Part shown: positions 3,857 through 61,111 of the stretch, piece by piece | How positions within the stretch are numbered: position 1 is the stretch's first letter | How the letters are laid out: each line of letters starts with the position of its first letter | From: an uncultured Muribaculaceae bacterium | GTDB lineage: Bacteria; Bacillota_I; Bacilli_A; RF39; UBA660 | Assembly: GCA_964416365.1 (NCBI GenBank) | Contig: CAYQDO010000001.1 | Span: 4,050-68,049 of the forward strand | Reading direction: 5' to 3' | Length of the DNA: 64,000 nt | The notes under the pieces: generated by a model | Told to the model about the DNA's origin: nothing | Seen by the model: only the letters and a program-made list of their open reading frames with translations | Database searches by the model: none | Program-made: the position numbers and the translations under genes

Positions 3857-4738
3857 ATGATAAAGTTCTTAAAAAATGTGTCAATAATTTTACTTATAAT
3901 TTTAACTATCATAAAAAGACCAACAATAACTACCGCAATTATCGAAGCAATTAATATATGGATTACTAATATATTTCCATCTTTATTTCCAATTCTAATA
4001 ATAAGTGATCTAATTATCAGCACTGATCTAATTAATATTATTACTAATATTATCGGACCTTTTTTTTCTAAATTATTTAAAGTTAGTAAATATAGCTCCT
4101 ATGTATTTATAATGAGTCTGTTAAGCGGTTGCCCTAGCAATGCTAAATATACTAAGGATTTATTAGATTATAATTTAATTAGTAAAGAAGAAGCTATTAA
4201 AGTATTATCTATGTCTCTTTTATACAATCCAATATTAATTTTAACTATTACCAGTTATTTAAATAAAGAAGACTCTTGCTTTATCATTATAGCCAATATA
4301 ATAATAAACATAATTATTGGGATTATAAATCGCAAGTTTTATTGTCAAGTTAAACACAATGAAAAAATGTTAAACCGAAATTTTAATCTAATTTCTTCTA
4401 TATCTAAATCTATAGATACATTAATGTTAGTATTAGGCTCTTTAGCATTATTTATTGCTCTATCATCTATTATTCCTTATAGTCATCCTTTGCTAGATGG
4501 AATATTTGAAATAACCAATGGCATTAAAGAAATAGTCTTTATTGAAAACTATAACTATCAACTATTATTTACCGGCATCCTTATGTCTTTTGGGGGCTTC
4601 AGTATTCAAACCCAAATAAAAAGTATTCTAAAAGATTATAACTTAGAATACAGTTTATTTTATAAATCAAGAATTATTCATCTAGCTTTATTTATATTAA
4701 CTTTGTACCTGAAAGTGATATTTAGTATCATTAGTTAA
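3857..4738 (+). CDS. polytopic membrane protein, YlbJ-like (nucleoside-recognition/Gate-domain type)
   Basis: 293 aa and highly hydrophobic. Its position next to the ylbL-like gene mirrors the Bacillus ylbJ-ylbL arrangement. Confidence 0.45.
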   Translation: MIKFLKNVSIILLIILTIIKRPTITTAIIEAINIWITNIFPSLFPILIISDLIISTDLINIITNIIGPFFSKLFKVSKYSSYVFIMSLLSGCPSNAKYTKDLLDYNLISKEEAIKVLSMSLLYNPILILTITSYLNKEDSCFIIIANIIINIIIGIINRKFYCQVKHNEKMLNRNFNLISSISKSIDTLMLVLGSLALFIALSSIIPYSHPLLDGIFEITNGIKEIVFIENYNYQLLFTGILMSFGGFSIQTQIKSILKDYNLEYSLFYKSRIIHLALFILTLYLKVIFSIIS

Positions 4739-5344
4739 ATTCGTAATCTGAAAGTTAATATTTTTCTTATAAACATAGCTTAAATGAATACCAAAATCTT
4801 CGCCATCTTCATTTAAAACCGGTAAATCAATTCTTAAAGAACAATGATCAGTACCACAATTTTGTTTATAGGTTCCATAACCTTCATATAAAAATGGTGT
4901 CTCTCTTAAATATCTCTTACTACCCCTACGATAACCAACAATATTGACTTGTTCAGTATCAGAGTATCCATAAGAATAATATAGTAAATAGCCAATATTT
5001 TCGCTAGTATTTAAAGAATCGTATATCAGCTTTAAGCAATGCCCTTCTCCATTTCGCAGTGAAGAAGATGCAGGTATAACCGATAAAACCGTATCTTTAC
5101 GATCTGGCATCGTCGCGCCATCATTACATGAAGCTATTCCTACTAAACCTAAATCAATAAAATCATTTTCAATTTCTTTAATTATATTAGCTTGATTCAT
5201 AAGTAATGTCGAAGTAATTCTACTTCTTTCATCTTCATTACGGACCGTAATTAAAACCGATATTAAAAATATTAAAATGATTGAAATTAAAGTAACTCCG
5301 ACAATAATTTCCACTAAAGTCATTCCCTTATTATTCTTTATCAT
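4697..5344 (-). CDS. type IV pilin-like minor pilin (pseudopilin) with a prepilin leader
   Basis: N-terminus MIKNNKG|MTLVEIIVGVTLISIIL: Gly at -1, Glu at +5, then a hydrophobic helix, which is the class III signal. Its start ATGA overlaps the ftsW stop. Confidence 0.7.
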   Translation of the reverse strand: MIKNNKGMTLVEIIVGVTLISIILIFLISVLITVRNEDERSRITSTLLMNQANIIKEIENDFIDLGLVGIASCNDGATMPDRKDTVLSVIPASSSLRNGEGHCLKLIYDSLNTSENIGYLLYYSYGYSDTEQVNIVGYRRGSKRYLRETPFLYEGYGTYKQNCGTDHCSLRIDLPVLNEDGEDFGIHLSYVYKKNINFQITNLTNDTKYHFQVQS

Positions 5345-6483
5345 TTTAATACCTCTTTGACTTTTTGTTCATGAATCTCAATTTGAACTCTTTGAGTTAA
5401 AAATAGCATAAAGATAATATTGATATAAAATGAACCACCATAACTTAAGAATGGTACTGGTACTCCAGTTAAAGGAATAAAAGCCATGATTCCTAAAAAA
5501 TTGACTAATAAATGTAATAAAATAAATGCAAAAGTTCCATAAGCAATAATTGAGCCCCGAAGACTATTAGCGTTTTTAGCAATTTTTAAAATACGATATA
5601 ACATAATTAAATATAATATTAGAATAATGATTCCACCAATGGCACCCCATTCTTCAACAACAACCGGAAAAATGAAATCCGTATAAGCTTCTGGTAAGTA
5701 TAAATATTTTTGCGTAGAATTTCCTAATCCAGCACCGGTTAAACCACCATTACTGATTGCAATAAAACCGTTACATACTTGATACCCAGTTTTTTCCGTG
5801 TATCTAGTACATGGATTTCGATAAGTTAAACGGCTATTTTGTTCAGCTGTTAGATGCCCACCAAATACTAGAATTGCAAAACAAGCAATTACGGTAATAA
5901 CTCCCGCAATTTTTAGACCTCGAACTTTTTTGTTATTAAAAGGTAAAGCCATAAATATTAAAAATGCTATTCCCCCTATTATACAAGCTGTTCCTAAATC
6001 AGGCTGTAAAATAGTTAATCCACAAATTAATAAAATAAAAATAAAAGGCACAATAATTTTATTGACAGAAAAGCTCTCACTGCGAGATATTTTATCAAGA
6101 CTTACTGCTAAAAAAACGATAATAATTGATTTAGCAAACTCACTTGGCTGAAAAGAAAAGAATCCCAAGTCATACCAACTACTTGCACTATTAGTAATAG
6201 TTCCATATGGAAATAAACCTATCAAGGCAAGGACAATAAAGATAATTCCTACCGGACCCCAAAATTTATATTTTTGCGTAGGATAAAATAATACAAAAAA
6301 ACCAAATATCCAACTAGCAATAATAGCATATAAATGTTTAATAAAATAATGTCGTTCTGATACTCCATTATAAAGCACTGCGGTAATACTAGAAGCACTA
6401 AAAATCATAATCAGACCAAAAATAGTAAAAAGTACCATTAGAAAAAAAAGCGTTTTGTCAATCTTTTTTAATTTAGCCTTCAT
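5341..6483 (-). CDS. ftsW: SEDS-family peptidoglycan glycosyltransferase (FtsW/RodA/SpoVE)
   Basis: 380 aa with about 10 TM segments and a SEDS-like conserved core (e.g. GLTGAGLGNS, PVPFLSYGGS). Confidence 0.8.
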   Translation of the reverse strand: MKAKLKKIDKTLFFLMVLFTIFGLIMIFSASSITAVLYNGVSERHYFIKHLYAIIASWIFGFFVLFYPTQKYKFWGPVGIIFIVLALIGLFPYGTITNSASSWYDLGFFSFQPSEFAKSIIIVFLAVSLDKISRSESFSVNKIIVPFIFILLICGLTILQPDLGTACIIGGIAFLIFMALPFNNKKVRGLKIAGVITVIACFAILVFGGHLTAEQNSRLTYRNPCTRYTEKTGYQVCNGFIAISNGGLTGAGLGNSTQKYLYLPEAYTDFIFPVVVEEWGAIGGIIILILYLIMLYRILKIAKNANSLRGSIIAYGTFAFILLHLLVNFLGIMAFIPLTGVPVPFLSYGGSFYINIIFMLFLTQRVQIEIHEQKVKEVLK

Positions 6484-6557
6484 AATTCCACCTAATTATA
6501 ATAATACCATATAAAAAACATATTTAAAATATTTGTTTTTTAAATATGTCAATTAAT

Positions 6558-6687
6558 CTTTGGTAAATTGCGCTATTCTTTTTTCTAATTTATTACTTCT
6601 TCTAAATTTTAATAAATAATAAGTAGTAAAGACTAATATGAGTACTACAACTAATACTATAATTACAATTATTAGTTTTTCTTTCAT
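6558..6687 (-). CDS. small membrane peptide (~43 aa) translationally coupled to the upstream ParA-like gene
   Basis: The ATG at 6687 overlaps the TAA stop of the 6687..7421 ORF (TAATG), and its RBS AGGAGGAG lies inside the upstream gene's last codons. Translation: MKEKLIIVIIVLVVVLILVFTTYYLLKFRRSNKLEKRIAQFTKD. Confidence 0.4.
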
Positions 6688-7421
6688 TACTCCTCCTTAT
6701 TAATTAAAGACTTCGCAATTAAATTAAATATTTTATAATCAGGCCATTTTTGATTGTTGATAGTTAAAACTTCTCCCTTAAAAGTGGTATTATCGATATC
6801 ATTATAATTAAAACGATTACTAATCGTATAATCAATATTATTTTGTAAAATATTTTTAATATCATATAAAAAATAATATTCTCTATTAAAATGGATACTA
6901 TAATTTAATATAACATTTATATCTTTACAAAACTTCTTTAAATACTCTAAATTAATACGAGAATTTTTTAAATCCAAGGCATCATTAGTAATAATATAAA
7001 ATACTGTATTCATTTTTTTTAGTAAAGATTCATTAAAACTATTTAAGACATGATTAGTATCAAAAAGAATCACATCATAAAGTAAATAAGCTTCTGATAT
7101 AAGTCCATCTATACAAGAAAAAGTTATTTCTTTAGCTTCCTCAATACTATCTGGAGCAGAAAGAAAATCAATGTAATTGTTATATTTAACTATATAATCC
7201 TTTATATCTGGAAACTTTTCTTTACTAAATTCTTTATAATAATCATAAATTGTTTTTCGAGACTTTTTATTTAAAGCTACGGCTATTCCACCATTAAATA
7301 AATCAGTATCTACAATTAAAACCTTTTTCTTTTGATTAGAAATTGTTCCTGCTAAATTTAATATAAAAGTAGTTTTACCAACGCCACCTTTACCTGAAAA
7401 TACACTTGCTACTTTACTCAT
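6687..7421 (-). CDS. ParA/MinD-family P-loop ATPase (CpaE/TadZ-like or MinD-like)
   Basis: Deviant Walker A SGKGGVGKTT near the N-terminus, 244 aa. Confidence 0.65.
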   Translation of the reverse strand: MSKVASVFSGKGGVGKTTFILNLAGTISNQKKKVLIVDTDLFNGGIAVALNKKSRKTIYDYYKEFSKEKFPDIKDYIVKYNNYIDFLSAPDSIEEAKEITFSCIDGLISEAYLLYDVILFDTNHVLNSFNESLLKKMNTVFYIITNDALDLKNSRINLEYLKKFCKDINVILNYSIHFNREYYFLYDIKNILQNNIDYTISNRFNYNDIDNTTFKGEVLTINNQKWPDYKIFNLIAKSLINKEE

Positions 7422-7806
7422 CTTGTACCTCTTTTATTATTATATTTTCACCATCTTTGTGGCCAATAAAATTAACATCACATCGATAATAATTTACTCC
7501 AATTAATTTTCCAAAAAAACTGGTATAAGGATGGCTATTAGAAATTGTTAAATCTCCATCCTCTTCATTATATTGTACGGTTAGTACGTCTGTTGATATT
7601 TTATTTTTTTCAAAAAATTCTTTAATATCCTCATAATAATCATCTTTAGAATATGTTAAAGTATCTTTGATAATTTTCTTAGTAGTTAATTCTACTCTAG
7701 TATTTTGAATAAACATTAGGGCAAAATCAAAGATAAATGCTATAATCAGCATAAAAATTGGAATCAATATAACAAAAATCCATTGATTAACCTTATACTT
7801 ATGCAT
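7414..7806 (-). CDS. small membrane-anchored protein with TadE-like topology
   Basis: 130 aa with an N-terminal hydrophobic helix followed by a soluble domain. A candidate extended -10 (TGATATAAT) and the RBS GGTAGGAAG lie upstream at about 7807-7870. Confidence 0.3.
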   Translation of the reverse strand: MHKYKVNQWIFVILIPIFMLIIAFIFDFALMFIQNTRVELTTKKIIKDTLTYSKDDYYEDIKEFFEKNKISTDVLTVQYNEEDGDLTISNSHPYTSFFGKLIGVNYYRCDVNFIGHKDGENIIIKEVQDE

Positions 7807-7872: not shown

Positions 7873-9519
7873 TTAACTAACCCTAAAAGGATTAGTTAAT
7901 GAACCTTCTCCGGTAACGATAGTCGATGATGAAATATTAATTACTGGTCTTAAATATGTTAATCGATCTATTCGATTACTATATAGTTTTCCACTGTCTC
8001 CTACATAAAAAATATTTGGTAAAAAATCATCATCATACATGACGTAAGATGTCATAGTCCAATTGTATCTATTAATATATAAATAATTATATGAATTATC
8101 TATATCATAAACTAATCCTGCCATCAATGCTTCATCTGCCGTTAATAATCCTACTGGATATATTAATGCGCCATTACCTTTACTCTCATCATTTACCGTA
8201 AAACGATCATTTTTGAAACCACAATGTAGAGTAGGTTTTACAGTATAAAACGATAGTCTAAAATGAGCAGCATATCTAGTATCAATTTCTGCACCATACC
8301 CAGGACCAGTTGCTTCTCCTCCTATTTCACTTTGTAGTTGGCGATCATTACAAAACAAAGTATCAACTATTTCATTTTCAAAAGATTGATTTAATATATT
8401 TGTCTCATACCATGTATCTAATTGTATTTTAGTATTACTTGAAGTTTCATTTCTTACTGCTTCTTCTCTTGACGTTGATGCACTTCCGTTCTCTCCACCA
8501 TACATATAGCCCAAATATTTAACATCATCATTATAATCACTCCAAGAAAATTTATCATAAAGCTTAGGATTTGTTCCAACATCATTCATAGTTTCATATT
8601 GATTGAATTCTTCTTCTGTACCATTATATATTAATCTAATAGAGCCATCACCATTAATACGAATGATTTTCCATTGAAAGCCACCAAATAAAAGATTGTT
8701 ATTTAAATATTCTTTATCTCCACGATAATAATAACTTACTCCATAGTCGTCAACTGTTGCATATAGACCATTTTCTACAGTAGCTACCGATTTTATAAGA
8801 CTTCCTTCTTCACCAGTTTCCGGCAATAAAACATATGTGCTTTGAGAAACAGCTACCTTTGAAAAATCAGGATTACCTTTTGCTCTGATGGTTATTTCTC
8901 CACCATCTTGAGATAATATTTTGTTTTTTAAACAGTTTTCTTCTTTGCATGGATCGACATATGTTTCAACTGTAATATAAGCATTGATTTCTTTTTCTTT
9001 ATCATCATCTTGAATATATGGGGCATTTAAAAAATAAATCTCTAAGGTATAAGTATGAATTTTACTTCCACCCGTTGGTGAAGTAAATATACCATGACCT
9101 AGACTTATTATTTTAGCTCCAGTTCCGATATTATTTAAATTATCGGTATCGGGAATTACAGCTCCATTATTACTAGTGTTCTCACTTATTAATTTATATT
9201 TTATAGCTGATTCACTGAAAGTATTAGATTCTACTACTAGATTAACTTGATAATTCATATCAAAAGGTGTTGTATTATCTCCGGTTATAGTAAATATTTT
9301 AATGCTTACTGGATCATTAGTAGGAATTATGTTATTTACTTTGATATTTGCCCCACCATTATAAGCAATTTTCATTTTACCGCCAGAAATAGTAATCGTA
9401 TCTATTGTTTCAGCATCTTCAAAATTAGCTGTAAAATAAGCATAAGAAATCCCAATTGACACTAATAAAACAATAAAAATTCCTAATAAAATTATAACTG
9501 TTTTTTTAATCATATACAT
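7873..9519 (-). CDS. large secreted protein, paralog A, with a SipW-cognate-type signal and TasA/camelysin-like N-terminal domain, a divergent C-terminal half and a conserved C-terminal tail
   Basis: Signal peptide ...LLVSIGISYA|YFTANFED resembles the TasA GTWA|AFND class. Residues up to about 315 are near-identical to paralog B. The C-terminal tail is LRPVINISSSTIVTGEGSLTNPFRVS. Confidence 0.6.
   Translation of the reverse strand: MYMIKKTVIILLGIFIVLLVSIGISYAYFTANFEDAETIDTITISGGKMKIAYNGGANIKVNNIIPTNDPVSIKIFTITGDNTTPFDMNYQVNLVVESNTFSESAIKYKLISENTSNNGAVIPDTDNLNNIGTGAKIISLGHGIFTSPTGGSKIHTYTLEIYFLNAPYIQDDDKEKEINAYITVETYVDPCKEENCLKNKILSQDGGEITIRAKGNPDFSKVAVSQSTYVLLPETGEEGSLIKSVATVENGLYATVDDYGVSYYYRGDKEYLNNNLLFGGFQWKIIRINGDGSIRLIYNGTEEEFNQYETMNDVGTNPKLYDKFSWSDYNDDVKYLGYMYGGENGSASTSREEAVRNETSSNTKIQLDTWYETNILNQSFENEIVDTLFCNDRQLQSEIGGEATGPGYGAEIDTRYAAHFRLSFYTVKPTLHCGFKNDRFTVNDESKGNGALIYPVGLLTADEALMAGLVYDIDNSYNYLYINRYNWTMTSYVMYDDDFLPNIFYVGDSGKLYSNRIDRLTYLRPVINISSSTIVTGEGSLTNPFRVS
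8649..9449. repeat. copy 1 of an ~800-bp near-identical direct repeat (the 5' coding halves of the two paralogs)
   Basis: Sequence from about 8649 to 9449 recurs almost base-for-base at about 10371 to 11172, an offset of about 1722 bp. Confidence 0.8.
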
Positions 9520-9586
9520 CCCTATTATAAGTCTAGCATTTTTAAATTTTTATTACAATAAAAAAGTTTTGAATTTTAATTCAAAC

Positions 9587-11236
9587 TTAAATTACTCGAA
9601 ATGGATCAGTCGTTGTCCCTGTTCCTGATACTATAGTATCAGAGGTTAGTGAAATACTGGCGCGAACTCCGTTGGAGTAATTCACGGCGTTATTGCCTAA
9701 ATATCCAGGCAAGTAAACAAAGAAAACGTATGCATTGCCACCTGAACTGCCCGGTGATAAAAGCCACCAGTTTTTGCTTGTATATAAATAATTTGTTGTA
9801 TTAGTTTTACCATTCACTAATCCCGCCAAGGCGGCTTCATCAGCAGTTATTAATCCGATTGGATAGGTTAATGCTCCATTTCCTATTGTTGTATCTGCTG
9901 AGGTTGTAAATCGATCATTTTTTAAGCCACATTTTAAAGTTGGAGTTTTATAATCAATTAAACGATAATACGCCGCATAATTTATATATACTCCTGTATT
10001 ACCATGTCCTGGGCCAGTTGCTACGCCTCCTACTTCACTTTCAAGTTGACGATCGTTACAAAATAAGTTATTTACCACTTGTGATTCAAATGATTTATCA
10101 GATATATTTGTTTGATACCAGTTGTCTAAGACAGTTTTGACATTTGTTGATGTTTCATTATATGTTGCAACTACTGAGGTTGTACCATTTCTTACTGTTG
10201 ATGCTACGCCATTTGCTCCGCCATACATATATCCCACATATTTAGCATCATTATTATAAGTAACATTCCAAGCTGATAAATCTATTTGAGTATTTTCACC
10301 AACATCATTCATTGTTTCATTTTGATTAAATTCCTCTTCTGTGCCATTATAAATAAGTCTGATTGAACTATCACCATTAATACGAATGATTTTCCATTGA
10401 AAGCCACCAAATAAAAGATTGTTATTTAAATATTCTTTATCTCCACGATAATAATAACTTACTCCATAGTCGTCAACTGTTGCATATAGACCATTTTCTA
10501 CAGTAGCTACCGATTTTATAAGACTTCCTTCTTCACCAGTTTCCGGCAATAAAACATATGTGCTTTGAGAAACAGCTACCTTTGAAAAATCAGGATTACC
10601 TTTTGCTCTGATGGTTATTTCTCCACCATCTTGAGATAATATTTTGTTTTTTAAACAGTTTTCTTCTTTGCATGGATCGACATATGTTTCAACTGTAATA
10701 TAAGCATTGATTTCTTTTTCTTTATCATCATCTTGAATATATGGGGCATTTAAAAAATAAATCTCTAAGGTATAAGTATGAATTTTACTTCCACCCGTTG
10801 GTGAAGTAAATATACCATGACCTAGACTTATTATTTTAGCTCCAGTTCCGATATTATTTAAATTATCGGTATCGGGAATTACAGCTCCATTATTACTAGT
10901 GTTCTCACTTATTAATTTATATTTTATAGCTGATTCACTGAAAGTATTAGATTCTACTACTAGATTAACTTGATAATTCATATCAAAAGGTGTTGTATTA
11001 TCTCCGGTTATAGTAAATATTTTAATGCTTACTGGATCATTAGTAGGAATTATGTTATTTACTTTGATATTTGCCCCACCATTATAAGCAATTTTCATTT
11101 TACCGCCAGAAATAGTAATCGTATCTATTGTTTCAGCATCTTCAAAATTAGCTGTAAAATAAGCATAAGAAATTGAGATAGATACTATCAGTATTAAAAT
11201 CAAACCTAACAAATATAAAATAATTTTATTTTTCAT
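9587..11236 (-). CDS. large secreted protein, paralog B, with the same N-terminal TasA-like domain, a different C-terminal half and a conserved C-terminal tail
   Basis: The track ORF starts at a TTG at 11281. The likely start is the ATG at 11236 (MKNKIILYLLG...ISYAYFTANFED). The C-terminal tail is GVRASISLTSDTIVSGTGTTTDPFRVI. Confidence 0.6.
   Translation of the reverse strand: MKNKIILYLLGLILILIVSISISYAYFTANFEDAETIDTITISGGKMKIAYNGGANIKVNNIIPTNDPVSIKIFTITGDNTTPFDMNYQVNLVVESNTFSESAIKYKLISENTSNNGAVIPDTDNLNNIGTGAKIISLGHGIFTSPTGGSKIHTYTLEIYFLNAPYIQDDDKEKEINAYITVETYVDPCKEENCLKNKILSQDGGEITIRAKGNPDFSKVAVSQSTYVLLPETGEEGSLIKSVATVENGLYATVDDYGVSYYYRGDKEYLNNNLLFGGFQWKIIRINGDSSIRLIYNGTEEEFNQNETMNDVGENTQIDLSAWNVTYNNDAKYVGYMYGGANGVASTVRNGTTSVVATYNETSTNVKTVLDNWYQTNISDKSFESQVVNNLFCNDRQLESEVGGVATGPGHGNTGVYINYAAYYRLIDYKTPTLKCGLKNDRFTTSADTTIGNGALTYPIGLITADEAALAGLVNGKTNTTNYLYTSKNWWLLSPGSSGGNAYVFFVYLPGYLGNNAVNYSNGVRASISLTSDTIVSGTGTTTDPFRVI
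10371..11172. repeat. copy 2 of the ~800-bp direct repeat
   Basis: Same as above. Identity breaks immediately 5' of ...gcataagaaat and 3' near ...tcaccattaatacg. Confidence 0.8.
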
Positions 11237-11284
11237 ATTTACCACTAGTATAATCATATCATTTTTCAAACTCAAAAACAATAA

Positions 11285-12330: not shown

Positions 12331-14316
12331 TCAATCAAAATAGTCTACAAACAAATTAGTAATTTCTTTTGATACTCTTGAATTTATGGGGTATCTATAA
12401 TTATTATTATTGTCATTTTTATAACTTATATTGGGACTTACTATCGCTATTGATATTTGGGGATTTTCAAAAGGAGCATACATAACATAAGAAGTTGTGA
12501 AAGTTTCTGTATCGACATTACCATCTAAATCAGTATCTAAATAAGAATCAGCAGTACCAGTCTTACCAGCTGATGTAAATTTATGATTGGTATAACTATA
12601 AGCAGTCCCAGTAGCATTAACAACTCTAAAACCTTCTCTTATGCGGTTTAAATATTTTAAATCTATTGGGGCCTTATTTAATACTTTACTTTGTTTTTCA
12701 TAATAGATACTGCCATCTTCATTTAATACATATTTTAATAAGGATGTTTCTTTTCTTTTACCAGTAGCGATGGTATTAATATATTGAATTAATGATATTG
12801 GTGTATAAGTGTCAAAATGTCCGACCGAGATATTTAATAGTTGATCTGGCGTATATTCAGTACCTTTTTGACCGGATATTTCTTTAGATAAATCAATACC
12901 AGTTAAAACTCCTAAGCCATAGGCTGCTAATACTTTGCGATATTCTTCAAAATAATCCTTTGTTACGTTAAGTTTAATACCTGGTTTATATTTTTCACCG
13001 GTTAAACCAATAGCAATTAAATATTGAAAGGTATTACTAGACATTTTCAAAGCATTAATATCATTGATAACTCCTATTTTAGTCCAAGAACATTTATCTT
13101 TTCCCCCGTATAATCTAATACAACGATCTTGGATTTTAGTATTTTCATTAATAAGGTTATTTTTATATCCAACACTAATGGTTGCTCCTTTAACAACACT
13201 ACCTAAATTATAGGAATTTAAAACATTATAATAAGAATAATCCAAAAATGTTTCATTTTCTTTGATTTTTTTGCCTATCAAAGACAGAATAGATCCATCC
13301 TGAGGATTACTGACCATAATATAACTTTCACCATAATATTTTGAGTTTAAAGCTTTTTTGGCATTAATCATTTCTTTTTTTAATATTTCTTCAATAGCAA
13401 TTTGCAAATTAATGTCGATTGATAAAACTAAATCTTTACCTCTTTTATAATTACTAATTAAAGTTAATCTATTATTTTTAACTTGATATTTAGCCTTTTC
13501 TCCTCTTAAGATTTCATCATATATATATTCTAGGTTGTTTATACCAACCCGGTCATTTAATTTATAATTTTTGTTTAAATATTCTTTTTTTAGTTCTTCA
13601 GGAATTCCTTGTTTATATGTTGATACAGTCCCAAAAACATCTCTCAAGATATCTTTATAGGGATAAACTCTTTCCCACGTAATATCAGTTCTAATTCCCT
13701 CTAAACTCAGTTCATTAATTAAAACATATTCTTCATTAGTAATGTTAGTTTTAATTATTTTATCTTCATAAGAATAACCATTATTCATTAAATAATAAAA
13801 ACTAGCTGCTTTATGATTAACTGTTTTTAACATCTCATCAGTAATTAGTTCTAGTTTTTTAGCAAATAATTCGTCACTGGTCATTTTTCTTTCTTCATAA
13901 TCTTTTAAAATACTTTGATTTAGTAAATTATCTACGCTTTCTTGATTTGTTAAATAAAAATATTTTTTAAAATAATAATCACTTATATTTTCGTTAATAT
14001 CAATATTATTTGCTAATATAGCGGCAATCTCCAATTCTTTCTTTGTACTTATATTTAATTTATTATATATGATGGATTTTACACCAATATTATCAACCAG
14101 AATATTACCGTTAATATCTAGAATTCTCCCACGAGGAGCAGTCATTCCTTCTAAATAAGCATGACTATTTTTATATATAATATTTGCATAAAAAGCTTTT
14201 TTATAAATACATAAATATGATAGTCTACCAATAATTATCATATTTATGACAATTAGACATCTTATTAAATTCTTTTTCATATTTTTAGTATAAGTAATTT
14301 TTATATACTTAAACAT
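12331..14316 (-). CDS. penicillin-binding protein 2 (class B transpeptidase)
   Basis: 661 aa, N-terminal TM, dimerisation domain, and a transpeptidase with the SVVK (SxxK) motif. Confidence 0.8.
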   Translation of the reverse strand: MFKYIKITYTKNMKKNLIRCLIVINMIIIGRLSYLCIYKKAFYANIIYKNSHAYLEGMTAPRGRILDINGNILVDNIGVKSIIYNKLNISTKKELEIAAILANNIDINENISDYYFKKYFYLTNQESVDNLLNQSILKDYEERKMTSDELFAKKLELITDEMLKTVNHKAASFYYLMNNGYSYEDKIIKTNITNEEYVLINELSLEGIRTDITWERVYPYKDILRDVFGTVSTYKQGIPEELKKEYLNKNYKLNDRVGINNLEYIYDEILRGEKAKYQVKNNRLTLISNYKRGKDLVLSIDINLQIAIEEILKKEMINAKKALNSKYYGESYIMVSNPQDGSILSLIGKKIKENETFLDYSYYNVLNSYNLGSVVKGATISVGYKNNLINENTKIQDRCIRLYGGKDKCSWTKIGVINDINALKMSSNTFQYLIAIGLTGEKYKPGIKLNVTKDYFEEYRKVLAAYGLGVLTGIDLSKEISGQKGTEYTPDQLLNISVGHFDTYTPISLIQYINTIATGKRKETSLLKYVLNEDGSIYYEKQSKVLNKAPIDLKYLNRIREGFRVVNATGTAYSYTNHKFTSAGKTGTADSYLDTDLDGNVDTETFTTSYVMYAPFENPQISIAIVSPNISYKNDNNNNYRYPINSRVSKEITNLFVDYFD

Positions 14317-16742: not shown

Positions 16743-17207
16743 TTATGGCGTTGGCGTTGTAAATGATGTTGGGCAAGTATCGTTAATAGTCGTACTTGCT
16801 CCGGAAAAATTCGCTGGAGTTGATAATTTAGCATAAGTATAATCTTTAACACTAAAATATGTATCAGTTAAAGAAACATAAAATGTTGGTTTAAGTTTTG
16901 CATCTATAGTTACGATAACATAACCATGATATTGTGATGATTCACCCATCTCTAAATCGCTTCTTAAACTGTAACAGTATCCGTAAGTTTTTGAACGCTC
17001 ACTAGTTGTACCTAATAATATATCAGCTTGGTATGATTCTTGAGCTTTATTTAGTACTTTTTCGGCATAGATTTTAAATGTGCCTCTTTGAGCATCGCTC
17101 ATAGTGCTCATGACAGAAGGAATGGCAATAATCATAATTATTGCTAGAACAACCATAACTGCTAATAATTCTACGAGGGTAAAACCTTTATTATTTAACC
17201 TTACCAT
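16743..17207 (-). CDS. type IV pilin (ComGC/PilA-like major pilin)
   Basis: From the internal ATG at 17207: MVRLNNKG|FTLVELLAVMVVLAIIMIIAIP, a canonical prepilin leader with Glu at +5, preceded by an AGGAG RBS. Mature protein is about 147 aa. Confidence 0.8.
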   Translation of the reverse strand: MVRLNNKGFTLVELLAVMVVLAIIMIIAIPSVMSTMSDAQRGTFKIYAEKVLNKAQESYQADILLGTTSERSKTYGYCYSLRSDLEMGESSQYHGYVIVTIDAKLKPTFYVSLTDTYFSVKDYTYAKLSTPANFSGASTTINDTCPTSFTTPTP

Positions 17208-17229
17208 ATATACTCCTATCTTCTGCTTT

Positions 17230-17259
17230 ATTATAATTGAATTGACAATTCTTGTCAAT
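17230..17259 (-). promoter_or_regulatory. consensus sigma-A promoter with an overlapping perfect palindrome upstream of the pilin gene
   Basis: On the minus strand: TTGACA, 17 nt, TATAAT. The inverted repeat ATTGACAAgaaTTGTCAAT spans the -35 box and the spacer. Confidence 0.6.
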
Positions 17260-21317: not shown

Positions 21318-21455
21318 TAATCTAATTCCTCCTCCTTATCAATGAAGACTCGCCCGAAAGGTGGGATATCATCCTCTTGTACCTCTTTAGTGCGGTTTAT
21401 AAATTAATTACAAACATAAGAATATTATCAAAAAAAATGGGTAAAGTCAAGAAAA
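21318..21455 (-). promoter_or_regulatory. possible rplU leader element (GC-richer structured segment)
   Basis: A locally GC-rich stretch (gaagactcgcccgaaaggtgggatatcatcctcttg) lies upstream of rplU, where Firmicutes carry an L21 leader. The structure was not verified. Confidence 0.2.
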
Positions 21456-22193
21456 TCACCTATTATAATAGGCTTTTAAAAACTTTCCCTCACTTTGATT
21501 TTTAATAAAATTAAAGCGATTTTTAAAAATATCGACAATTCTCTTTATATACTTTGTTTTGATATAACTATTATTACTTAAATACCTATTAAGAAGAAAC
21601 TGATTAAAGACATACTTATGATTTCTTATTTCTTCATATGTTTTATAAAGAAGAAAGATAATTATTAGATAAGAATTCAAACCATTAAAAGAAAGGTAAA
21701 TTACAAAGATAATTATACCCAAAATACTGATTAAATTAGTTAACTTTAAAGCTTTTTTATAACTAATAAGATTTTCTAAAAAGCATAATAGCACTTTAGA
21801 TCCATCTAAAGGAATAATAGGAAGTAAATTAAATAAGATAATCATCTGGTTATAATTCAGAAAAATATTATAACTAATATCATTAATGAAATACATATTC
21901 AAGACTTTAAAAATGGGAAACAATAACATCTGAAAAATAACTCCTGCCAAGCTAATAATTAGTGTTTCTTTAGTTGTGCTGTTAGAATTCATATTACTAT
22001 TAATCATACTTCCGAAAGGCAAAATAGTTATATTATATATTTGATATTTATAAAATTTTAAGAAGATAATATGTCCTAAATCATGAATTAATAAAATTAA
22101 ACTAATAATTAGAAAGTAATTAAAATAACCGGAAAATAAAACACTTATTAATATTAAATAAGTGATAGGATGGATTTTAAATGAATTCTTCAA
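21456..22193 (-). CDS. site-2 protease-like membrane metalloprotease (peptidase M50, SpoIVFB-like)
   Basis: Polytopic protein with an HDLGH motif in a TM segment (a variant of HExGH). Positioned as spoIVFB is, upstream of rplU. Confidence 0.5.
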   Translation of the reverse strand: MKNSFKIHPITYLILISVLFSGYFNYFLIISLILLIHDLGHIIFLKFYKYQIYNITILPFGSMINSNMNSNSTTKETLIISLAGVIFQMLLFPIFKVLNMYFINDISYNIFLNYNQMIILFNLLPIIPLDGSKVLLCFLENLISYKKALKLTNLISILGIIIFVIYLSFNGLNSYLIIIFLLYKTYEEIRNHKYVFNQFLLNRYLSNNSYIKTKYIKRIVDIFKNRFNFIKNQSEGKFLKAYYNR

Positions 22194-22719
22194 AATCTAG
22201 TATTTCCCCATTTTTCATAAACAAGACATACAATTTATTTTCTTTGGCATTAGCTATAACAGTGTTTGCTTCTATATAATCATAAAGTTTTATATTTATA
22301 TCTTCGACATTACCATACCAATAATCAATACCATCCATCCCCTGAATAATAATAGTATTGCCATAGTTTTCTTTTTCACCAATATAAACTACTATACCAC
22401 TTTTAAATGGTGAAACCGTTGTTACTCCATTTAATAAAGCTCCATCAAGATAAGTATTTGCTTCAGTGTATTGCATTTCAGATTTGTTAACCACTAATTC
22501 GTCAGCTTTTGGTAAAACTTTACCAAAATATTTATTATATAATTTGGTAAAACCACTGAAATTAAAAGTTTTGTCATAAAAATGTTTTTTAAAATACAAA
22601 AGATTTTTATCGCTATAATTAACAAAAATAGATAACACTAAAAACAAAATAATACTAAGTAAGACTCTAATAAAAAGCGATTTAATATATTTTCTTTGAT
22701 TATTATTCATCGATTTCAC
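22177..22719 (-). CDS. degenerate M23/LytM-domain protein (SpoIVFA-like position)
   Basis: N-terminal TM, and a C-terminal M23-like beta-fold (SGIVVYIGEKENYGNTIIIQGMDGIDYWYGNV) without the catalytic His residues. Confidence 0.4.
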   Translation of the reverse strand: MKSMNNNQRKYIKSLFIRVLLSIILFLVLSIFVNYSDKNLLYFKKHFYDKTFNFSGFTKLYNKYFGKVLPKADELVVNKSEMQYTEANTYLDGALLNGVTTVSPFKSGIVVYIGEKENYGNTIIIQGMDGIDYWYGNVEDINIKLYDYIEANTVIANAKENKLYVLFMKNGEILDFEEFI

Positions 22720-23098
22720 CTATTAAATTATATTTACTAAGCAAATATTTAAGACCTACAACATATATAATTAAATTTAATATAAAATTCTCAATTAAAT
22801 AATGCCATATATAACTACTTAATCCATTATAAATTCCATATATAAGCAAACCAAATATAAAATAATATATTACTAAGAGAAATAACAAAGTAAATGTGGT
22901 TTCCTTTATATATTTAAAAATTACAATTCTAATTATATAAAGCAAAATAAGAATTATAGTGATTATGGGTATTTTATTTAAAACAATATCTATTATTAAA
23001 ATTAAATATAGTTTCTGATCAGTTAAATAGATAGTATTTAATAATATAGAAGTCACAAATAAATTGGTACTATTAATAATTAAAAAATCTAATATCAT
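22703..23098 (-). CDS. mreD: rod shape-determining protein MreD-like
   Basis: 131 aa, entirely hydrophobic, immediately downstream of the mreC-like gene. Confidence 0.45.
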   Translation of the reverse strand: MILDFLIINSTNLFVTSILLNTIYLTDQKLYLILIIDIVLNKIPIITIILILLYIIRIVIFKYIKETTFTLLFLLVIYYFIFGLLIYGIYNGLSSYIWHYLIENFILNLIIYVVGLKYLLSKYNLIGEIDE

Positions 23099-23718
23099 AT
23101 TTGCCTGCTTAAAACAGCAATATAATTTAAGTTATATAAATTAACTGGTCTGATTGTTAAATAGCTATCCAAGATATCATATTTTATTTTAATAACTTTA
23201 CCGATGTAAGTTCCATACAAACTATGCACGAGATCATTAATTTTAATATTATTATAATTAGATATTTCTTTTACCACTATATTATTTTCTTCATCATGTC
23301 CAGCTATCTTGCCCGTCTCGTCATTAATGCGAACAATTAAGTTGGTATTATAAATAAACTTAATTTCACTAGTATTTTGATTTAATTTAGTTATTATTCC
23401 TACCAACCCTTCATCATTAATAACTTCATCTCCTAAATTATAATTACTGCCACTAATAACTAAATTATTAAAACCATAACTATTTTTAATAACATTAGTA
23501 ATGATATATTGATTATTTATTTTAATATTGTTTTTAAAATCTAATAATTCTTGGTATTCATTTAACAGATATACTTTTTCATTTTTTAAAAGTTTAATTT
23601 CCAAATTATTATTTCTGATAAAAAGTATCTGGTTAAAATTATTAATAATATTTAAAATAGTGCTGCGAAAGATAATTGCTAAAATAAGTATTAAATAAAT
23701 TAAATAATTATGTTTCAC
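23095..23718 (-). CDS. mreC: rod shape-determining protein MreC
   Basis: N-terminal TM, a coiled-coil segment, then beta domains with EGLVGIITKL. No mreB is adjacent in the window. Confidence 0.6.
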   Translation of the reverse strand: MKHNYLIYLILILAIIFRSTILNIINNFNQILFIRNNNLEIKLLKNEKVYLLNEYQELLDFKNNIKINNQYIITNVIKNSYGFNNLVISGSNYNLGDEVINDEGLVGIITKLNQNTSEIKFIYNTNLIVRINDETGKIAGHDEENNIVVKEISNYNNIKINDLVHSLYGTYIGKVIKIKYDILDSYLTIRPVNLYNLNYIAVLSRQI

Positions 23719-24391
23719 TAGTCGTCATCTCTTTAAAAAAACTATAGTATTCTTTACCATTAGTAATAAGATGATCAAGAAGCGGAATACCAATTATATT
23801 ACCGATCGTAATCATACTATTAGTAAATTCCTTATCTTCTGAGGAAGGGTTTACAATCCCAGATGGATGATTATGCATAATAATTAAAGCATCTGCTTTT
23901 TCTTTAATAGCATAGTTATAAATTTCTTTGGGGGATGCAAGGGAACTATTTTTAGTACCTTTATACATAATTTCATAATTAATTAATCTTTTTTTATGAT
24001 CAAGCAATATAACAATCATTTCTTCCTGCGCTTTATGACCGATCAAATAGGAAAAATATTTATGAACTAAATCGGTATTATTTATCAAAATTCTTTCGTT
24101 TATTTCTTTATTAGCAACTCGCTTGCCTAATTCAATAGCAGCCAGCAGAGTTACTGCCTTAACCTCTCCAACCCCTTTTATTTCAGTTAACTCTCTAACT
24201 GATAAATCATCTAAATTATTGATCGATTTAATTTTAGTTAAAATTAAGTTACTTAAATTCTTAACATTATGATTTTTAGTACCTGTTCTTAAAATAATTG
24301 CTAATAAATCTTCATTACTTAAATTATCTGGACCATATTTTAATAATCTTTCTCTAGGTTTTTCGTTATTAGGTAAATCTTTAATGTTCAT
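23708..24391 (-). CDS. radC: RadC-like JAB-domain protein (UPF0758)
   Basis: A helix-hairpin-helix region, then IIMHNHPSG (JAMM motif). Confidence 0.8.
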   Translation of the reverse strand: MNIKDLPNNEKPRERLLKYGPDNLSNEDLLAIILRTGTKNHNVKNLSNLILTKIKSINNLDDLSVRELTEIKGVGEVKAVTLLAAIELGKRVANKEINERILINNTDLVHKYFSYLIGHKAQEEMIVILLDHKKRLINYEIMYKGTKNSSLASPKEIYNYAIKEKADALIIMHNHPSGIVNPSSEDKEFTNSMITIGNIIGIPLLDHLITNGKEYYSFFKEMTTSET

Positions 24392-25081: not shown

Positions 25082-26932
25082 TTAGTTATTTATATAATAT
25101 CCTGTATTATATAAATTGCCCTCCCACTCAATTAGAATTAAATTTTTTCCAGTACCTTTCTTTAAATTAACAGAACAATCATTTACTTCGTAAACATAAC
25201 CTTTACCATATTCATCAAGTAAGACAACATTATAATCTTCTTCATAGAACATGATTTTTAATTTATTACCGGATAATTCAAACGGAATTGAGTATAAAAT
25301 AGCCTTTTCAAATTTAGCGGCATAATCTGTTTCTGTATAAGAATCACTTAATTGCTCTGCTGAGAAGCTATTCGGCATTACTTTTTCAAAAGTGTAATCT
25401 TCATCAAATATTGGCATTTTACTTACATAGTTGTAAGTATTAGAAACAGTCATTTTAAATATTTCTTCATCACCTTTTAAAGTAATGATTGTTGAATAGA
25501 AGTCACCTTCATCACTTAAAATGCATTCACTCATATCTGTATGGAATCCTCTGAAATCACGACCAAACATAATAGTTTTTTCATTTTCTTTAGTATAATA
25601 ATCACCAAAAGTGAAACTAAAGAAATTATCTCCATAACGCCAATCTTCAATAATAGTTTTTTTACTAGAATCTATTGTATAATCATTAGCAGTAGATTTT
25701 AAATCAGCTGCTTTAGCGCAAGACCAAGTATTTGTTAAATCCCAACCATTATTCATTAAAGTTAATTTATTATTATTTAATTTAGCATTGAAATTTCCTT
25801 TTGGATAAACAAAATTAGCATCAGTTGATTTTAATAAATATTTATTAAATTTTGCTGAATAGTAATCTGGATTAGCTAAAATCCAATTAATTTTACCATT
25901 CAAATCCATATTAATTAAAGTACTGGAATAATAAATTCCTACTAAAACACTCTCACTTGATTCATCGTAATATAAAGCATTAATATATCCAAAATTATCT
26001 TTTACACTATTCATATGAGCAGAATCTATTTCTGATAACATCGCAAATATATCATATGTCTTTTCTACTTCACCAGTTTTTAGATTGAACTGTATAACCT
26101 TTTCATCTGCTGTAGAATATAAAATTTTATTATTTGGAATTTCTGTATAATTATGAAAATATGGATTTGCTAGTTCATATGAGTTATACACTTTTCCTAA
26201 TAAATCAATTTCCAATAAACCTAAAGCTTTATCTTCCAATGCTTCTGGACTAGCAAGTAATAAATGACCATTTTCTAATCTAGTTAATTGTTTATACACT
26301 TGATTAGTTAATAACCATCTTATTTCACCTTTTTGATCAAAAGCAGCAGCAGTGTGCCCAACTGGTGTTGAAAGGAAGTAAAAATCATTGTCGTTTGCAT
26401 CTAATTTACTAGTAATAATTTCAATATCCGGAAAATAAATTGAATTATATAAACTTGGACTTTCTATCGGAATACTAATCGTGTTATTAGTTCCATCATT
26501 TAATTCTAATATAATTTGATTATTATAGTCCATATATAAACCATAAATAGGAATGTAATGAACAGTTTGTTCTTTAGTATAATAAATCAAATCTTTTCCT
26601 TCGTCTTTACCTTTAACAGTTATTTTAACATTTGTTTTAGTAGACGTTTTAAATCCTACTAACGCAGTAAGCGGAGATATCTCATAAGGATTAACAACAA
26701 TAAGTGGATTAGATATTGTATAATCGCCATTTTCTATTTTAGTTAGAAATTCTGTATCCATATCATCTTGATTAGAAACTAGATTAATATTATTTTTTAA
26801 TAAGTTGTATTCATCAAAGGAATATAGTTTTTCTTTTTGTGAAATTACCTTGTCTTTGAAAATAAAAGCTAAAATGACAGTTATTAAAATAAGAACAACG
26901 GTAACTAGTATCACTAAATTCTTTCTCTTCAT
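25082..26932 (-). CDS. membrane-anchored beta-propeller-like protein, possibly arylsulfotransferase (ASST) family
   Basis: 616 aa, N-terminal signal anchor, repeated beta-rich units and an AHMNSV motif reminiscent of the ASST active-site His. Family assignment is tentative. Confidence 0.35.
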   Translation of the reverse strand: MKRKNLVILVTVVLILITVILAFIFKDKVISQKEKLYSFDEYNLLKNNINLVSNQDDMDTEFLTKIENGDYTISNPLIVVNPYEISPLTALVGFKTSTKTNVKITVKGKDEGKDLIYYTKEQTVHYIPIYGLYMDYNNQIILELNDGTNNTISIPIESPSLYNSIYFPDIEIITSKLDANDNDFYFLSTPVGHTAAAFDQKGEIRWLLTNQVYKQLTRLENGHLLLASPEALEDKALGLLEIDLLGKVYNSYELANPYFHNYTEIPNNKILYSTADEKVIQFNLKTGEVEKTYDIFAMLSEIDSAHMNSVKDNFGYINALYYDESSESVLVGIYYSSTLINMDLNGKINWILANPDYYSAKFNKYLLKSTDANFVYPKGNFNAKLNNNKLTLMNNGWDLTNTWSCAKAADLKSTANDYTIDSSKKTIIEDWRYGDNFFSFTFGDYYTKENEKTIMFGRDFRGFHTDMSECILSDEGDFYSTIITLKGDEEIFKMTVSNTYNYVSKMPIFDEDYTFEKVMPNSFSAEQLSDSYTETDYAAKFEKAILYSIPFELSGNKLKIMFYEEDYNVVLLDEYGKGYVYEVNDCSVNLKKGTGKNLILIEWEGNLYNTGYYINN

Positions 26933-28659: not shown

Positions 28660-28895
28660 CTTCACCTTCCTATTATTTATATAATACCAAATTTTATTTT
28701 GATAAACAATACATAATAAAAAAATAATGGGATTATTCCATAATTTATGAGCAACTCCACTGTGTTCTATCTTGGGATAAACTTGATAAAGCTGTTGCAC
28801 TTTAATCCATTAAAGACGGCACAAGCTAAATGACTTACATTTACAACATTATACTATATATTAAGTTAATTTATTATATCAATTTTTTTAAACAT

Positions 28896-34199: not shown

Positions 34200-34480
34200 G
34201 CCTTCTTTCTTTTAAAAAAAGTTATAAATGTAAGGGCGAAGAATCGCGGTACCACCTTACCTTTATAACTTATTGCTTATATTTAACGCATATAAACGAT
34301 TTTTCTCCACTGCAACCTTCTTATAATCTAGCTATTAGCTCCCACCAAATACTAACTCTCTTTAAACTATTATATAATACTCCTCAGCTTCACTGAAAAC
34401 TACCATAATTATATAAGAATAAATAAAAATAATCAAGTTTTAAGTTGATTAACCCTGTCGTTTGGGTTATAATTAAGTGA
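34200..34480 (-). promoter_or_regulatory. T-box riboswitch leader upstream of valS
   Basis: The minus strand carries an AGAGAG box, GGTGGGAGCTAATA, the F-box GCGTTA, and the T-box AGGTAAGGTGGTACCGCG followed by a T-run before the RBS. The candidate specifier is GUU. Confidence 0.65.
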
Positions 34481-48565: not shown

Positions 48566-49123
48566 TTAACTTACGCCGGCTTTTCCATCTACAACTATAT
48601 TTAAATGAATTTCACTACCCAAGGTATCATTGGGTAAATTATATATATCTGGATCAGCAACCCATACTTTTAATTCAAAAGCTTTGGACTGACCAGCTGC
48701 CAAATTACCTTGAAACACTTCCCCATCCGTAATTTCACTCAAAGTTCTAGGACCCGTATTATTAAAATCCACACGAATATAGGCATGATTTAATAACGTT
48801 CTATCCGTATAATCCGGATTGTCAGCTACATAAATTGTATAGCTATAAGGAACTGTACCAGTATTTTGAATAGCAAAAGTATATTCATTATCAGTTAGCA
48901 ATTCAGCTTCTACATCACTCATCGGTTCTATATCTTCGATATTAATGCTCGATCCGCCTGTGAAAGTAATTTGTAAATCACCCACTGTTAAAACCTGAGC
49001 ATTTACGTCTGTTTCAATATCCATAAACAAAGCATAGGAAGAACCCAAGATTGTAATTACCATAACCATAACAGTTATAGCAGAAATAATAAAACGCTTT
49101 CTTAATTGATTCCTTATATACAT
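48566..49123 (-). CDS. TasA/camelysin (peptidase M73)-family secreted protein with a SipW-cognate-type signal
   Basis: ...ITILGSSYA|LFMDIETDVNAQVLTVGDLQITF...IEPMSD...FAIQNTGT aligns with TasA GTWA|AFNDIKS...GTLDL...LKPGD...FQFENNGS. Confidence 0.6.
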   Translation of the reverse strand: MYIRNQLRKRFIISAITVMVMVITILGSSYALFMDIETDVNAQVLTVGDLQITFTGGSSINIEDIEPMSDVEAELLTDNEYTFAIQNTGTVPYSYTIYVADNPDYTDRTLLNHAYIRVDFNNTGPRTLSEITDGEVFQGNLAAGQSKAFELKVWVADPDIYNLPNDTLGSEIHLNIVVDGKAGVS

Positions 49124-61060: not shown

Positions 61061-61111
61061 ATATTTCAAATTAATTATATTTATGATAAAATTATATTAG
61101 AGTAAGTGATA

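Follow-up and report, generated by a model that had tools for sequence, protein, structure and literature searches.

Probable remnant of a Tad operon beside a SEDS gene coupled to a pilin-like gene in an uncultured bacterium

The window considered here, a stretch of 64,000 nucleotides (64 kb) from contig CAYQDO010000001.1 of an uncultured bacterium, is A/T-rich, with about 27% G+C, and its minus-strand genes are densely packed. Between positions 4697 and 7806, five minus-strand genes bring together a ParA/MinD-superfamily ATPase flanked by two small membrane proteins, a SEDS peptidoglycan polymerase of the FtsW/RodA type and a pilin-like protein; the origin of this gene run, part of which probably derives from a tight-adherence (Tad/Flp) operon, is the subject of the present analysis. 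Open reading frame (ORF) calls and Pfam matches bear out the five genes described in an earlier note, which had been made from the letters alone, and in the direction of transcription the region reads as follows (lengths in amino acids, aa; HMM, hidden Markov model).

7414 to 7806, minus strand: 130-aa TadE/TadF-like bitopic membrane protein (weak Pfam TadE match, orthologue HMM)
6687 to 7421, minus strand: 244-aa ParA/MinD-superfamily ATPase, TadZ/CpaE lineage (family scores, synteny, neighbour-joining tree)
6553 to 6687, minus strand: 44-aa single-transmembrane (TM) peptide, TadB N-terminal segment (orthologue HMM, tblastn)
6511 to 6550, minus strand: terminator-like or attenuator-like hairpin (6517-6550) with T-run (6511-6516) (RNA fold)
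5341 to 6483, minus strand: 380-aa SEDS peptidoglycan polymerase, FtsW/RodA type (Pfam PF01098)
4697 to 5344, minus strand: 215-aa pilin-like protein, PSP215 (class III signal KG/MTLVE, Pfam N_methyl)

The micro-peptide is 44 aa long, and not 43 aa as previously counted. Two of the junctions are tight, as had been noticed before: the TAA stop codon of the ATPase gene shares its last A with the ATG of the peptide gene (TAATG; the junction reads ...GAGTAATGAAAG), and the TGA stop codon of the SEDS gene lies inside the ATG-A of the pilin gene (ATGA; the junction reads ...AAAATGATAAAG). Overlaps of at least 4 nt are frequent in the window, also between unrelated genes (15264-15824/15805-16683 and 1840-2784/2781-3809), so that they are weak evidence of a functional link.

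The 244-aa ATPase is placed in the ParA/MinD superfamily by Pfam matches to AAA_31, CbiA and ParA, and its best sequence matches among solved structures are MinD and FlhG (E 2e-18). Like MinD, it would be a small membrane-associated ATP switch; however, it fails the NCBIfam MinD models, scoring 36.1 bits against a cutoff of 212.9 for TIGR01968 and 23.4 bits against a cutoff of 508 for PRK10818, and no minC adjoins it, as the earlier note had remarked. A database search returned 1,251 relatives of about 250 aa from uncultured gut-type Bacilli and Mollicutes-like metagenome-assembled genomes (MAGs), two of which carried the source label “pilus assembly protein CpaE”.

A profile scan of species-representative genomes with the ATPase family yielded 80 loci, whose neighbouring genes were classified by tblastn; these and the other stretches taken from genomes or metagenome assemblies are referred to by number (L001 and so on). 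In 73 of the 80, the ATPase relative (36-44% identity) is surrounded by a canonical Tad operon, Flp-TadE-TadF-like-ATPase-TadA-TadB-TadC, and lies directly upstream of tadA. The remaining seven (L005-L011) match the arrangement of the window and are devoid of tadA, tadB and tadC, as are L001, L085 and L087, which were added through exact-protein look-ups and stand outside the 80 scanned loci; the common order is efp, 130-aa gene, ATPase gene, micro-peptide gene, ftsW, pilin gene and convergent ylbJ and ylbL. With the window, these make up 11 remnant-type loci, which are monophyletic in 200 of 200 bootstraps of a neighbour-joining tree of 35 taxa; the clade joins L014, L092, L038, L041 and L012 in 173/200. 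The deviant Walker A motif KGGVGKT is a feature shared with TadZ/CpaE proteins, and K11, G12, G13, G15, K16, D38 and D121 are invariant among 31 sequences from remnant and canonical loci.

Family-model scores, the synteny of the 73 Tad-locus relatives and the tree thus argue for an ATPase of the TadZ/CpaE type, as the earlier note had surmised; the MinD reading was rejected on scores and synteny. By these comparisons the assignment holds by descent, while the tad operon context itself is gone: no tadA lies directly downstream of the ATPase gene or anywhere else in the 64-kb window (tblastn). The structurally characterised TadZ of Eubacterium rectale has an extra N-terminal receiver-like domain, whereas the window protein, with its 244 aa, consists of the ATPase domain only; it also differs from the TadZ/CpaE proteins of intact operons in the lack of a TadA at the locus and in its faster evolution. 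A further relative is Ssd (Rv3660c) of Mycobacterium tuberculosis, a TadZ homologue whose overexpression is reported to alter septation (PMC3095998) and which is regarded as the tadZ of an Flp operon (PMC9531140). Like the window ATPase, Ssd is a TadZ-family ATPase linked to Flp/Tad genes (PMC3095998, PMC9531140), but it still resides within an intact tad operon, and the NCBIfam Ssd/CpaE_hom_Actino match of the window protein is weak (29 bits, far under the cutoff of 154).

The 130-aa protein scores slightly under the cutoff of the Pfam TadE family (20.2 bits, E 6.8e-4; cutoff 22.9), and an HMM of its orthologues matches the gene directly upstream of TadZ in canonical loci, with E values from 2e-26 to about 1e-11. 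Canonical proteins at this TadF position start with ...N-K-K-G-Q-T-L and a hydrophobic stretch. The K-G-Q cleavage motif is gone in 10 of 10 remnant-clade orthologues, nine of which have no Gly there at all: the window protein reads K-V-N-Q-W-I-F, others R-Q-N-H-A-I-F or K-R-N-T-K-I-F, and L009 retains a lone Gly (K-Q-N-A-G-L-F-F). The loss of the motif coincides with that of the Tad core. On the evidence of these comparisons, the gene at the TadF position has its orthologue in that of the 130-aa protein, from which the prepilin cleavage glycine has been lost.

The origin of the 44-aa peptide is indicated by an HMM built on nine orthologues and run against 5,374 ORFs, whose matches outside its own family (E 1e-7 to 6e-3) fall mostly within the N-terminal ~45 residues of TadB proteins from about 25 canonical loci. 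By tblastn, residues 8-47 of the L014 TadB match the window peptide, which also shows a weak Pfam TadB_TadC_N match, and a K-R-I-x-x-F/Y-T sequence after the TM helix is common to both (KKRISKYTVKK in the L087 peptide, NERISKYTVNN in the L014 TadB). The peptide is found in all remnant-clade loci whose sequence covers the position; no T2SSF domain was detected in it, consistent with a fragment and not a platform protein. As judged from these matches, it is the surviving N-terminus of TadB. The coupled TM peptide of the earlier note is real, but its identity as a TadB fragment had been missed, and with it the presence of a decayed Tad operon.

Compared with Tad/Flp loci such as tad of Aggregatibacter and cpa of Caulobacter, the window retains a trio homologous to TadZ/CpaE, to a TadE/TadF-type gene and to the TadB N-terminus, with the gene order of about 70 related canonical Tad loci, but it lacks the Flp pilin, the TadA motor and the TadB/TadC platform domains. 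Absence was assessed by tblastn at the locus and over the whole 64-kb window, the queries being proteins from L014, L092 and L003, and this is the scope that applies to all statements on tadA, tadB, tadC, flp, pilC and pilD made here; no Flp, tadA, tadB/tadC platform or prepilin peptidase was found in the window. The gaps between the ATPase gene and ftsW in eight relatives also yielded no remains of TadA, TadB or TadC beyond the TadB N-terminus (tblastn). Since the core is missing from locus and window, the locus is not counted as a member of the Tad systems, and its gene content indicates that by itself it cannot build a Tad pilus.

An intermediate state is preserved in L014, an uncultured Erysipelotrichaceae MAG, and in L092, where TadE, TadF-like, TadZ, TadA, TadB, TadC, FtsW and pilin follow one another in order (FtsW 63% and pilin 38-39% identical to those of the window). 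The arrangement of the window is thus what such an ancestor leaves behind once its Tad core has been deleted. A step further are L088 and L089, which contain efp, a short reverse-strand gene, ftsW, the pilin gene and ylbL, with no Tad gene. In a second ATPase lineage (L013, L017), tadC is likewise followed by a SEDS gene (51-53% identity of the product), which adjoins it directly in L013, lies beyond two small genes in L017 and has no pilin gene behind it; either Tad and SEDS genes were neighbours before the pilin gene was coupled, or their adjacency arose twice.

The three remnant genes are maintained by selection. Ratios of nonsynonymous to synonymous substitution rates (dN/dS), calculated here and below pairwise between the window and its close relative L085 (ATPase 89% identical), amount to 0.079 in the ATPase, 0.178 in the 130-aa protein and, from few sites, 0.32 in the 44-aa peptide, and the ORFs are intact in every informative remnant-clade locus, at ATPase identities down to 41%. 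A split ATPase gene in the close relative L086 was ruled out as a pseudogene: it lies on the ENA contig NODE_870, with a coverage of 0.96, and almost all genes there are in pieces, including those for the penicillin-binding protein (PBP), EF-P, MutS and the ATPase, which identifies the split as an assembly artefact. In pairs of canonical loci, ATPase and FtsW identities run close together (0.81/0.87, 0.77/0.75 and 0.54/0.53), whereas in pairs of remnant loci the ATPase lags behind (0.55/0.68, 0.52/0.60 and 0.44/0.64); the speeding up of the ATPase relative to FtsW in the remnant clade fits changed constraints rather than decay.

One operon of all five genes, as implied by the earlier note, is not supported: there seem to be two units, the first made up of the 130-aa, ATPase and 44-aa genes and the second of ftsW-pilin. 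Directly 3′ of the peptide stop codon lies a perfect 13-bp hairpin made of A/T pairs only and followed by TTTTTT, with a fold energy of -10.5 kcal/mol and a z-score of -1.46, which alone is not significant; the hairpin is identical in L085, and a comparable hairpin with T-run occurs 3′ of the peptide gene in L006, L011, L001 and L010. A consensus promoter and terminator scan found promoter-like sites no commoner than in shuffled sequence, and missed the A/T-rich hairpin because it demands G-C pairs. In L006 (1740-2093) and L007 (4701-5054), the space between the peptide gene and ftsW holds a conserved gene of opposite strand, encoding a two-TM protein of 117 aa; L088 has a 112-aa version between efp and ftsW (4869-5207), L009 and L011 contain fragments of 47-48 aa, and the gene is absent in the window, L085, L001 and L087. 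An Rfam scan of the longer gaps in relatives gave no RNA family. Given the hairpin with its T-run and the opposite-strand gene of the relatives, ftsW-pilin could be expressed independently of the Tad remnant, and the two probably represent separate transcription units.

The SEDS protein matches Pfam FTSW_RODA_SPOVE (PF01098) over its full length (259.5 bits, residues 11-366), and its closest solved chains are FtsW (E 8e-38) and RodA/MrdB of Escherichia coli (E 2e-36). It is therefore a regular member of the FtsW/RodA/SpoVE family, but its NCBIfam scores for FtsW (249.6; cutoff 337.5) and RodA (238.3; cutoff 336.7) both lie under the equivalog cutoffs and are too close to each other for a subtype. 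Its dN/dS of 0.068 compares with 0.087 for YlbL, and the protein is as conserved as efp and ylbL. In the relatives, the neighbourhood is kept, with the genes for a class B PBP (12331-14316 in the window), L33 and efp upstream and ylbJ, ylbL and mutS downstream. The gene is found downstream of a complete Tad operon, downstream of the remnant and also where Tad genes do not adjoin it at all (L088, L093), and in L093 it adjoins murB and radC-mreC-mreD. From this distribution it looks like a housekeeping gene. A SEDS protein dedicated to the pilus, as previously suggested, is not supported, because the gene persists unchanged both in the window clade, where the Tad core is missing, and in L088 and L093, where no Tad genes lie alongside.

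The 215-aa protein matches Pfam N_methyl (23.5 bits; cutoff 21.2), as do 18/18 aligned family members; G7 (G-1), E12 (E+5) and four Cys are conserved in the family, the first two without exception, and dN/dS is 0.108. An AlphaFold model (predicted local distance difference test, pLDDT, 79.7; predicted template modelling score, pTM, 0.70) has the shape of a lollipop, with a 57-residue helix (10-66) followed by an eight-strand beta domain. The globular domain has no Pfam family and no significant Foldseek match against the PDB, and a profile search of solved structures with the pilin matched the N-terminal pilin helix only. By sequence and model, the protein is genuinely pilin-like, and prepilin cleavage and entry into a filament are predicted for it.

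Its relatives point in the same direction. By a profile search, the family grew to 347 proteins; a scan of metagenomes with the pilin profile, keyed on the generic N-terminal motif, returned mostly unrelated pilins and about 12 informative loci. The distant members (27-32% identity) are the last of three pilin-like genes beside the convergent ylbJ/ylbL in L090, L091, L094 and L101, with no SEDS gene nearby, and the N-termini of the trio read NNKGFIATS..., KNKGFVLMET... and NKKGMTLVEI.... In L119 and L121, the order g2-pilin-ylbL occurs with a PilB-like ATPase gene nearby, and L036 and L015 each have a family member after tadC. The window protein thus resembles the minor pilins of monoderms, such as ComGD-GG of Bacillus and those of the Streptococcus sanguinis type IV pilus, in its G-1/E+5 signal, its long helix with a beta domain, its weak NCBIfam ComGE N-terminal match and the occurrence of its distant relatives in runs of two or three pilin genes; it differs from them in its unmatched globular domain and in the position of its gene, which is joined to the 3′ end of a SEDS gene and not to a pilin operon.

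The adjacency of the SEDS and pilin genes, singled out by the earlier note as unusual, is not a one-off and is conserved across changing flanks. In the clade with this pair, where the pilin is at least 38% identical, the spacing from ftsW to the pilin gene is -4 to +9 nt in 12/12 loci, and the 3′ end of ftsW contains a Shine-Dalgarno-like sequence. Five downstream neighbours occur (ylbJ/ylbL, ylbL, nusB, murB or a TasA-like gene), and upstream of the pair lies tadC, the peptide gene, a reverse-strand gene or a TasA-like gene. A literature search returned no paper linking FtsW/SEDS proteins with pilin-like proteins or genes, and the locus does not correspond to any SEDS accessory arrangement known from that search.

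Further genes related to filaments are encoded in the same window.

16743 to 17258, minus strand: 171-aa type IV pilin, candidate major pilin of the remaining PilB-type filament (Pfam N_methyl, NCBIfam)
34504 to 35850, plus strand: 448-aa PilB/GspE-type assembly ATPase (Pfam T2SSE, NCBIfam)
7873 to 11281, minus strand: tandem pair of TasA-like surface-protein paralogs (548 and 564 aa), inserted between efp and the remnant genes (SYAYFT N-terminus)

The 171-aa pilin matches Pfam N_methyl (E 4e-8) and, at its N-terminus, the NCBIfam models ComGC, ComGE and GspG. The 448-aa ATPase matches Pfam T2SSE (E 1e-125) and the NCBIfam models GspE (475 bits) and PilB (471 bits); it is encoded by the only type IV filament motor gene of the window, located between valS and a thioredoxin-like gene, and shares 69% identity with a non-Tad T2SSE ATPase in L003 whose gene adjoins pilC-pilD. 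Neither pilC nor pilD was found in the 64-kb window by tblastn. A 618-aa protein (26944-28800, minus strand) with a prepilin N-terminus and immunoglobulin-like domains may, by its domain make-up, be a pilus-tip adhesin; its gene is followed by that of an arylsulfotransferase-like protein (25082-26932, minus strand).

The two TasA-like paralogs (7873-9519 and 9587-11281, minus strand) lie immediately upstream of the five genes on the same strand, as had been noted; they have a TasA/camelysin-style ...SYAYFT... N-terminus and no Pfam match. They are essentially identical over residues 26-305 and about 50% identical across the C-terminal ~240 residues, which has the look of a recent duplication, or of gene conversion, combined with an exchange of the C-terminal domain. 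They share with the 618-aa protein a C-terminal motif (...TGGTGTTSDPFRV), as a weak local match only. At this position the paralogs are absent in L001, L005-L011 and L087, the closest relatives of the window apart from L085 and L086, and proteins with a SYAYF-type N-terminus recur beside Tad loci, ftsW or the pilin gene in L013, L014, L015, L093 and L098. A 185-aa protein of the window (48566-49123, minus strand) has a similar N-terminus and matches Pfam Peptidase_M73 (camelysin/TasA family), and two ORFs close to the window end (61106-62755, plus strand, and 63563-63943, minus strand) are sortase-like, as judged by eye.

A conserved cluster, radC-mreC-mreD-(M23 peptidase)-(M50 peptidase)-rplU-ysxB-rpmA, occupies 21456-24391 on the minus strand. 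Neither mreB nor minC/minD is found in it at the positions these genes have in Bacillus, mreD being followed by the M23 and M50 genes; the missing minC/minD at their usual site suggests, on gene order, a genome without a Min system. A T-box leader upstream of valS (34229-34402, minus strand) and an L21 leader upstream of rplU (21336-21408, minus strand) are the only Rfam matches at gathering score.

Taken as a whole, these observations probably describe two neighbouring units, a decayed Tad operon kept under selection and a housekeeping SEDS gene with a minor pilin gene on its transcript. Unit 1 (7806 to 6553, minus strand) would be the relic of a Tad operon: the ancestor of the clade would have lost flp, the first tadE, tadA, tadB beyond its first ~45 codons and tadC, leaving the TadF-position protein, the TadZ/CpaE-type ATPase with its nucleotide-binding motifs intact and the TadB N-terminal peptide. 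This evolutionary reconstruction is regarded as solid. As purifying selection acts on the three genes, they appear to be kept for a job other than the building of a Tad pilus; the trio could form a membrane-tethered ATP switch of the ParA/MinD type, in which the two small membrane proteins would anchor the ATPase. Such a switch would position or regulate another envelope machine, the candidates being the PilB-type filament and the neighbouring wall synthase, and the effect of Ssd (Rv3660c) on septation (PMC3095998) is a precedent for a non-pilus role of a TadZ-type ATPase.

Unit 2 (6483 to 4697) would consist of the housekeeping SEDS gene, co-transcribed and translationally coupled with the gene of a minor pilin belonging to a PilB/Com-type filament. 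The pilin gene would formerly have been part of a PilB/Com-type minor-pilin set anchored beside ylbJ/ylbL, and in one clade ftsW came to lie directly upstream of it. Having no room for a promoter of its own, the pilin gene would depend on the ftsW transcript, and the pair would be inherited as a block; most likely, the pilin simply rides on this transcript. Dependence on the transcript is favoured over a partnership between the two proteins on two grounds, namely that the residues for filament assembly are retained in the pilin and that its relatives belong to pilin operons of the usual kind.

Several points weigh against this two-unit reading. The tethered switch is modelled on the behaviour of the ParA/MinD family, and the loss of tadA, tadB and tadC is established for the locus and the 64-kb window, so that a second Tad locus would alter the interpretation of unit 1. 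The hairpin, with its low z-score and its A/T pairs only, may leak, and read-through into ftsW is possible; the sole promoter-like hexamers before ftsW are awkwardly near its ribosome-binding site. Finally, the ftsW-pilin pair survived at least three rearrangements that broke the linkage of pilin and ylbL (L014, L092 and L093), an outcome that a functional partnership predicts as well.

Such a partnership is unlikely, though it is the first alternative to be weighed. The pilin would be an accessory of the SEDS protein, either as a bitopic partner that couples wall synthesis to the passage of a type IV filament or as a regulator of the polymerase, and the TadZ-derived ATPase with its membrane partners would be a MinD-like spatial regulator of the same enzyme. 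The constant spacing of the SEDS and pilin genes in 12/12 loci despite changing flanks, the Tad locus directly upstream of the SEDS gene in two ATPase lineages (L014/L092 and L013/L017), the selection on the remnant genes beside ftsW, the radC-mreC-mreD-M23-M50-rplU cluster devoid of minCD and mreB and the septation precedent of Ssd/Rv3660c (PMC3095998) are all in its favour. However, a mere anchor for the SEDS protein would not need the invariant G-1 and E+5, the distant relatives of the pilin sit in ordinary pilin operons with no SEDS gene nearby, and a downstream gene without a promoter stays with its upstream gene even if no functional link exists. As to the ATPase, L088 and L093 carry SEDS-pilin with no adjoining ATPase module, and elsewhere a terminator-like element or an opposite-strand gene parts the ATPase unit from ftsW. 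The full version, in which a prepilin-type protein was recruited as a dedicated SEDS partner, its gene staying translationally coupled to the SEDS gene despite repeated rearrangement, and the TadZ/TadF/TadB-derived trio was co-opted as a MinD-like regulator of wall synthesis or division, is improbable; if true, it would concern Mollicutes-like gut Bacilli that have a wall and perhaps neither MinCD nor MreB.

It is similarly doubtful that the trio serves the remaining PilB/Com-type filament, the ATPase localising the machine and the TadF-like protein and the peptide acting as accessory membrane parts; unit 1 would then be a rewired accessory of a pilus and would have no new function. TadZ/CpaE proteins are localisation factors of type IV filament machines, the motifs of the ATPase are intact, and the window does encode a PilB-type ATPase, the 171-aa pilin, the 618-aa pilin-like protein and the 215-aa minor pilin; but no PilB-type system is known to use TadZ, and the TadF-like protein, having lost the cleavage glycine, cannot enter a filament. 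Moreover, the pilin occurs without an adjoining module in L088 and L093, and the absence of pilC and pilD from the 64-kb window also speaks against such a role.

That the remaining Tad genes have no function and are merely awaiting deletion, with an adjacency devoid of meaning, is very improbable and already disfavoured. The Tad core genes are indeed gone from the locus, the evolution of the ATPase is faster than that of its canonical counterparts, ftsW-pilin has no Tad genes beside it in L088 and L093, and the genome is compact and A/T-rich; however, the ORFs are intact in all informative loci of the remnant clade, the two larger genes have a low dN/dS, the catalytic motifs do not vary, and no pseudogene fragments of the deleted genes are left, indicating that the deletion is old and that the survivors have remained intact since. 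An ordinary division operon, with a MinD homologue beside FtsW and the pilin as a passenger, which the earlier note had named as the outcome that would refute it, is barely credible: a ParA/MinD-superfamily ATPase with MinD and FlhG as best solved-structure matches does lie beside a SEDS gene, but it reaches only 36 bits against the MinD equivalog cutoff of 212.9 with no adjacent minC, its relatives reside in Tad operons directly upstream of tadA, and its flanking genes are TadF-like and TadB-derived.

For annotation, the two-unit reading carries a warning, in that ATPases of this kind should not be called MinD, nor such micro-ORFs novel peptides. The ftsW-pilin pair is a candidate link between wall synthesis and a wall-crossing filament in monoderms, although hitch-hiking is the more likely cause of the adjacency. 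The locus offers a dated series of natural Tad operon deletions, from the full operon through a three-gene remnant to nothing, and shows which parts are able to outlive the machine, namely the ParA-like TadZ, a membrane protein of TadF type and the N-terminal 45 residues of TadB. These surviving parts point to a module for docking TadZ to the membrane, so far not experimentally defined, and, after mycobacterial Ssd, they provide a second, independent hint that TadZ-type ATPases may have roles other than in the pilus.

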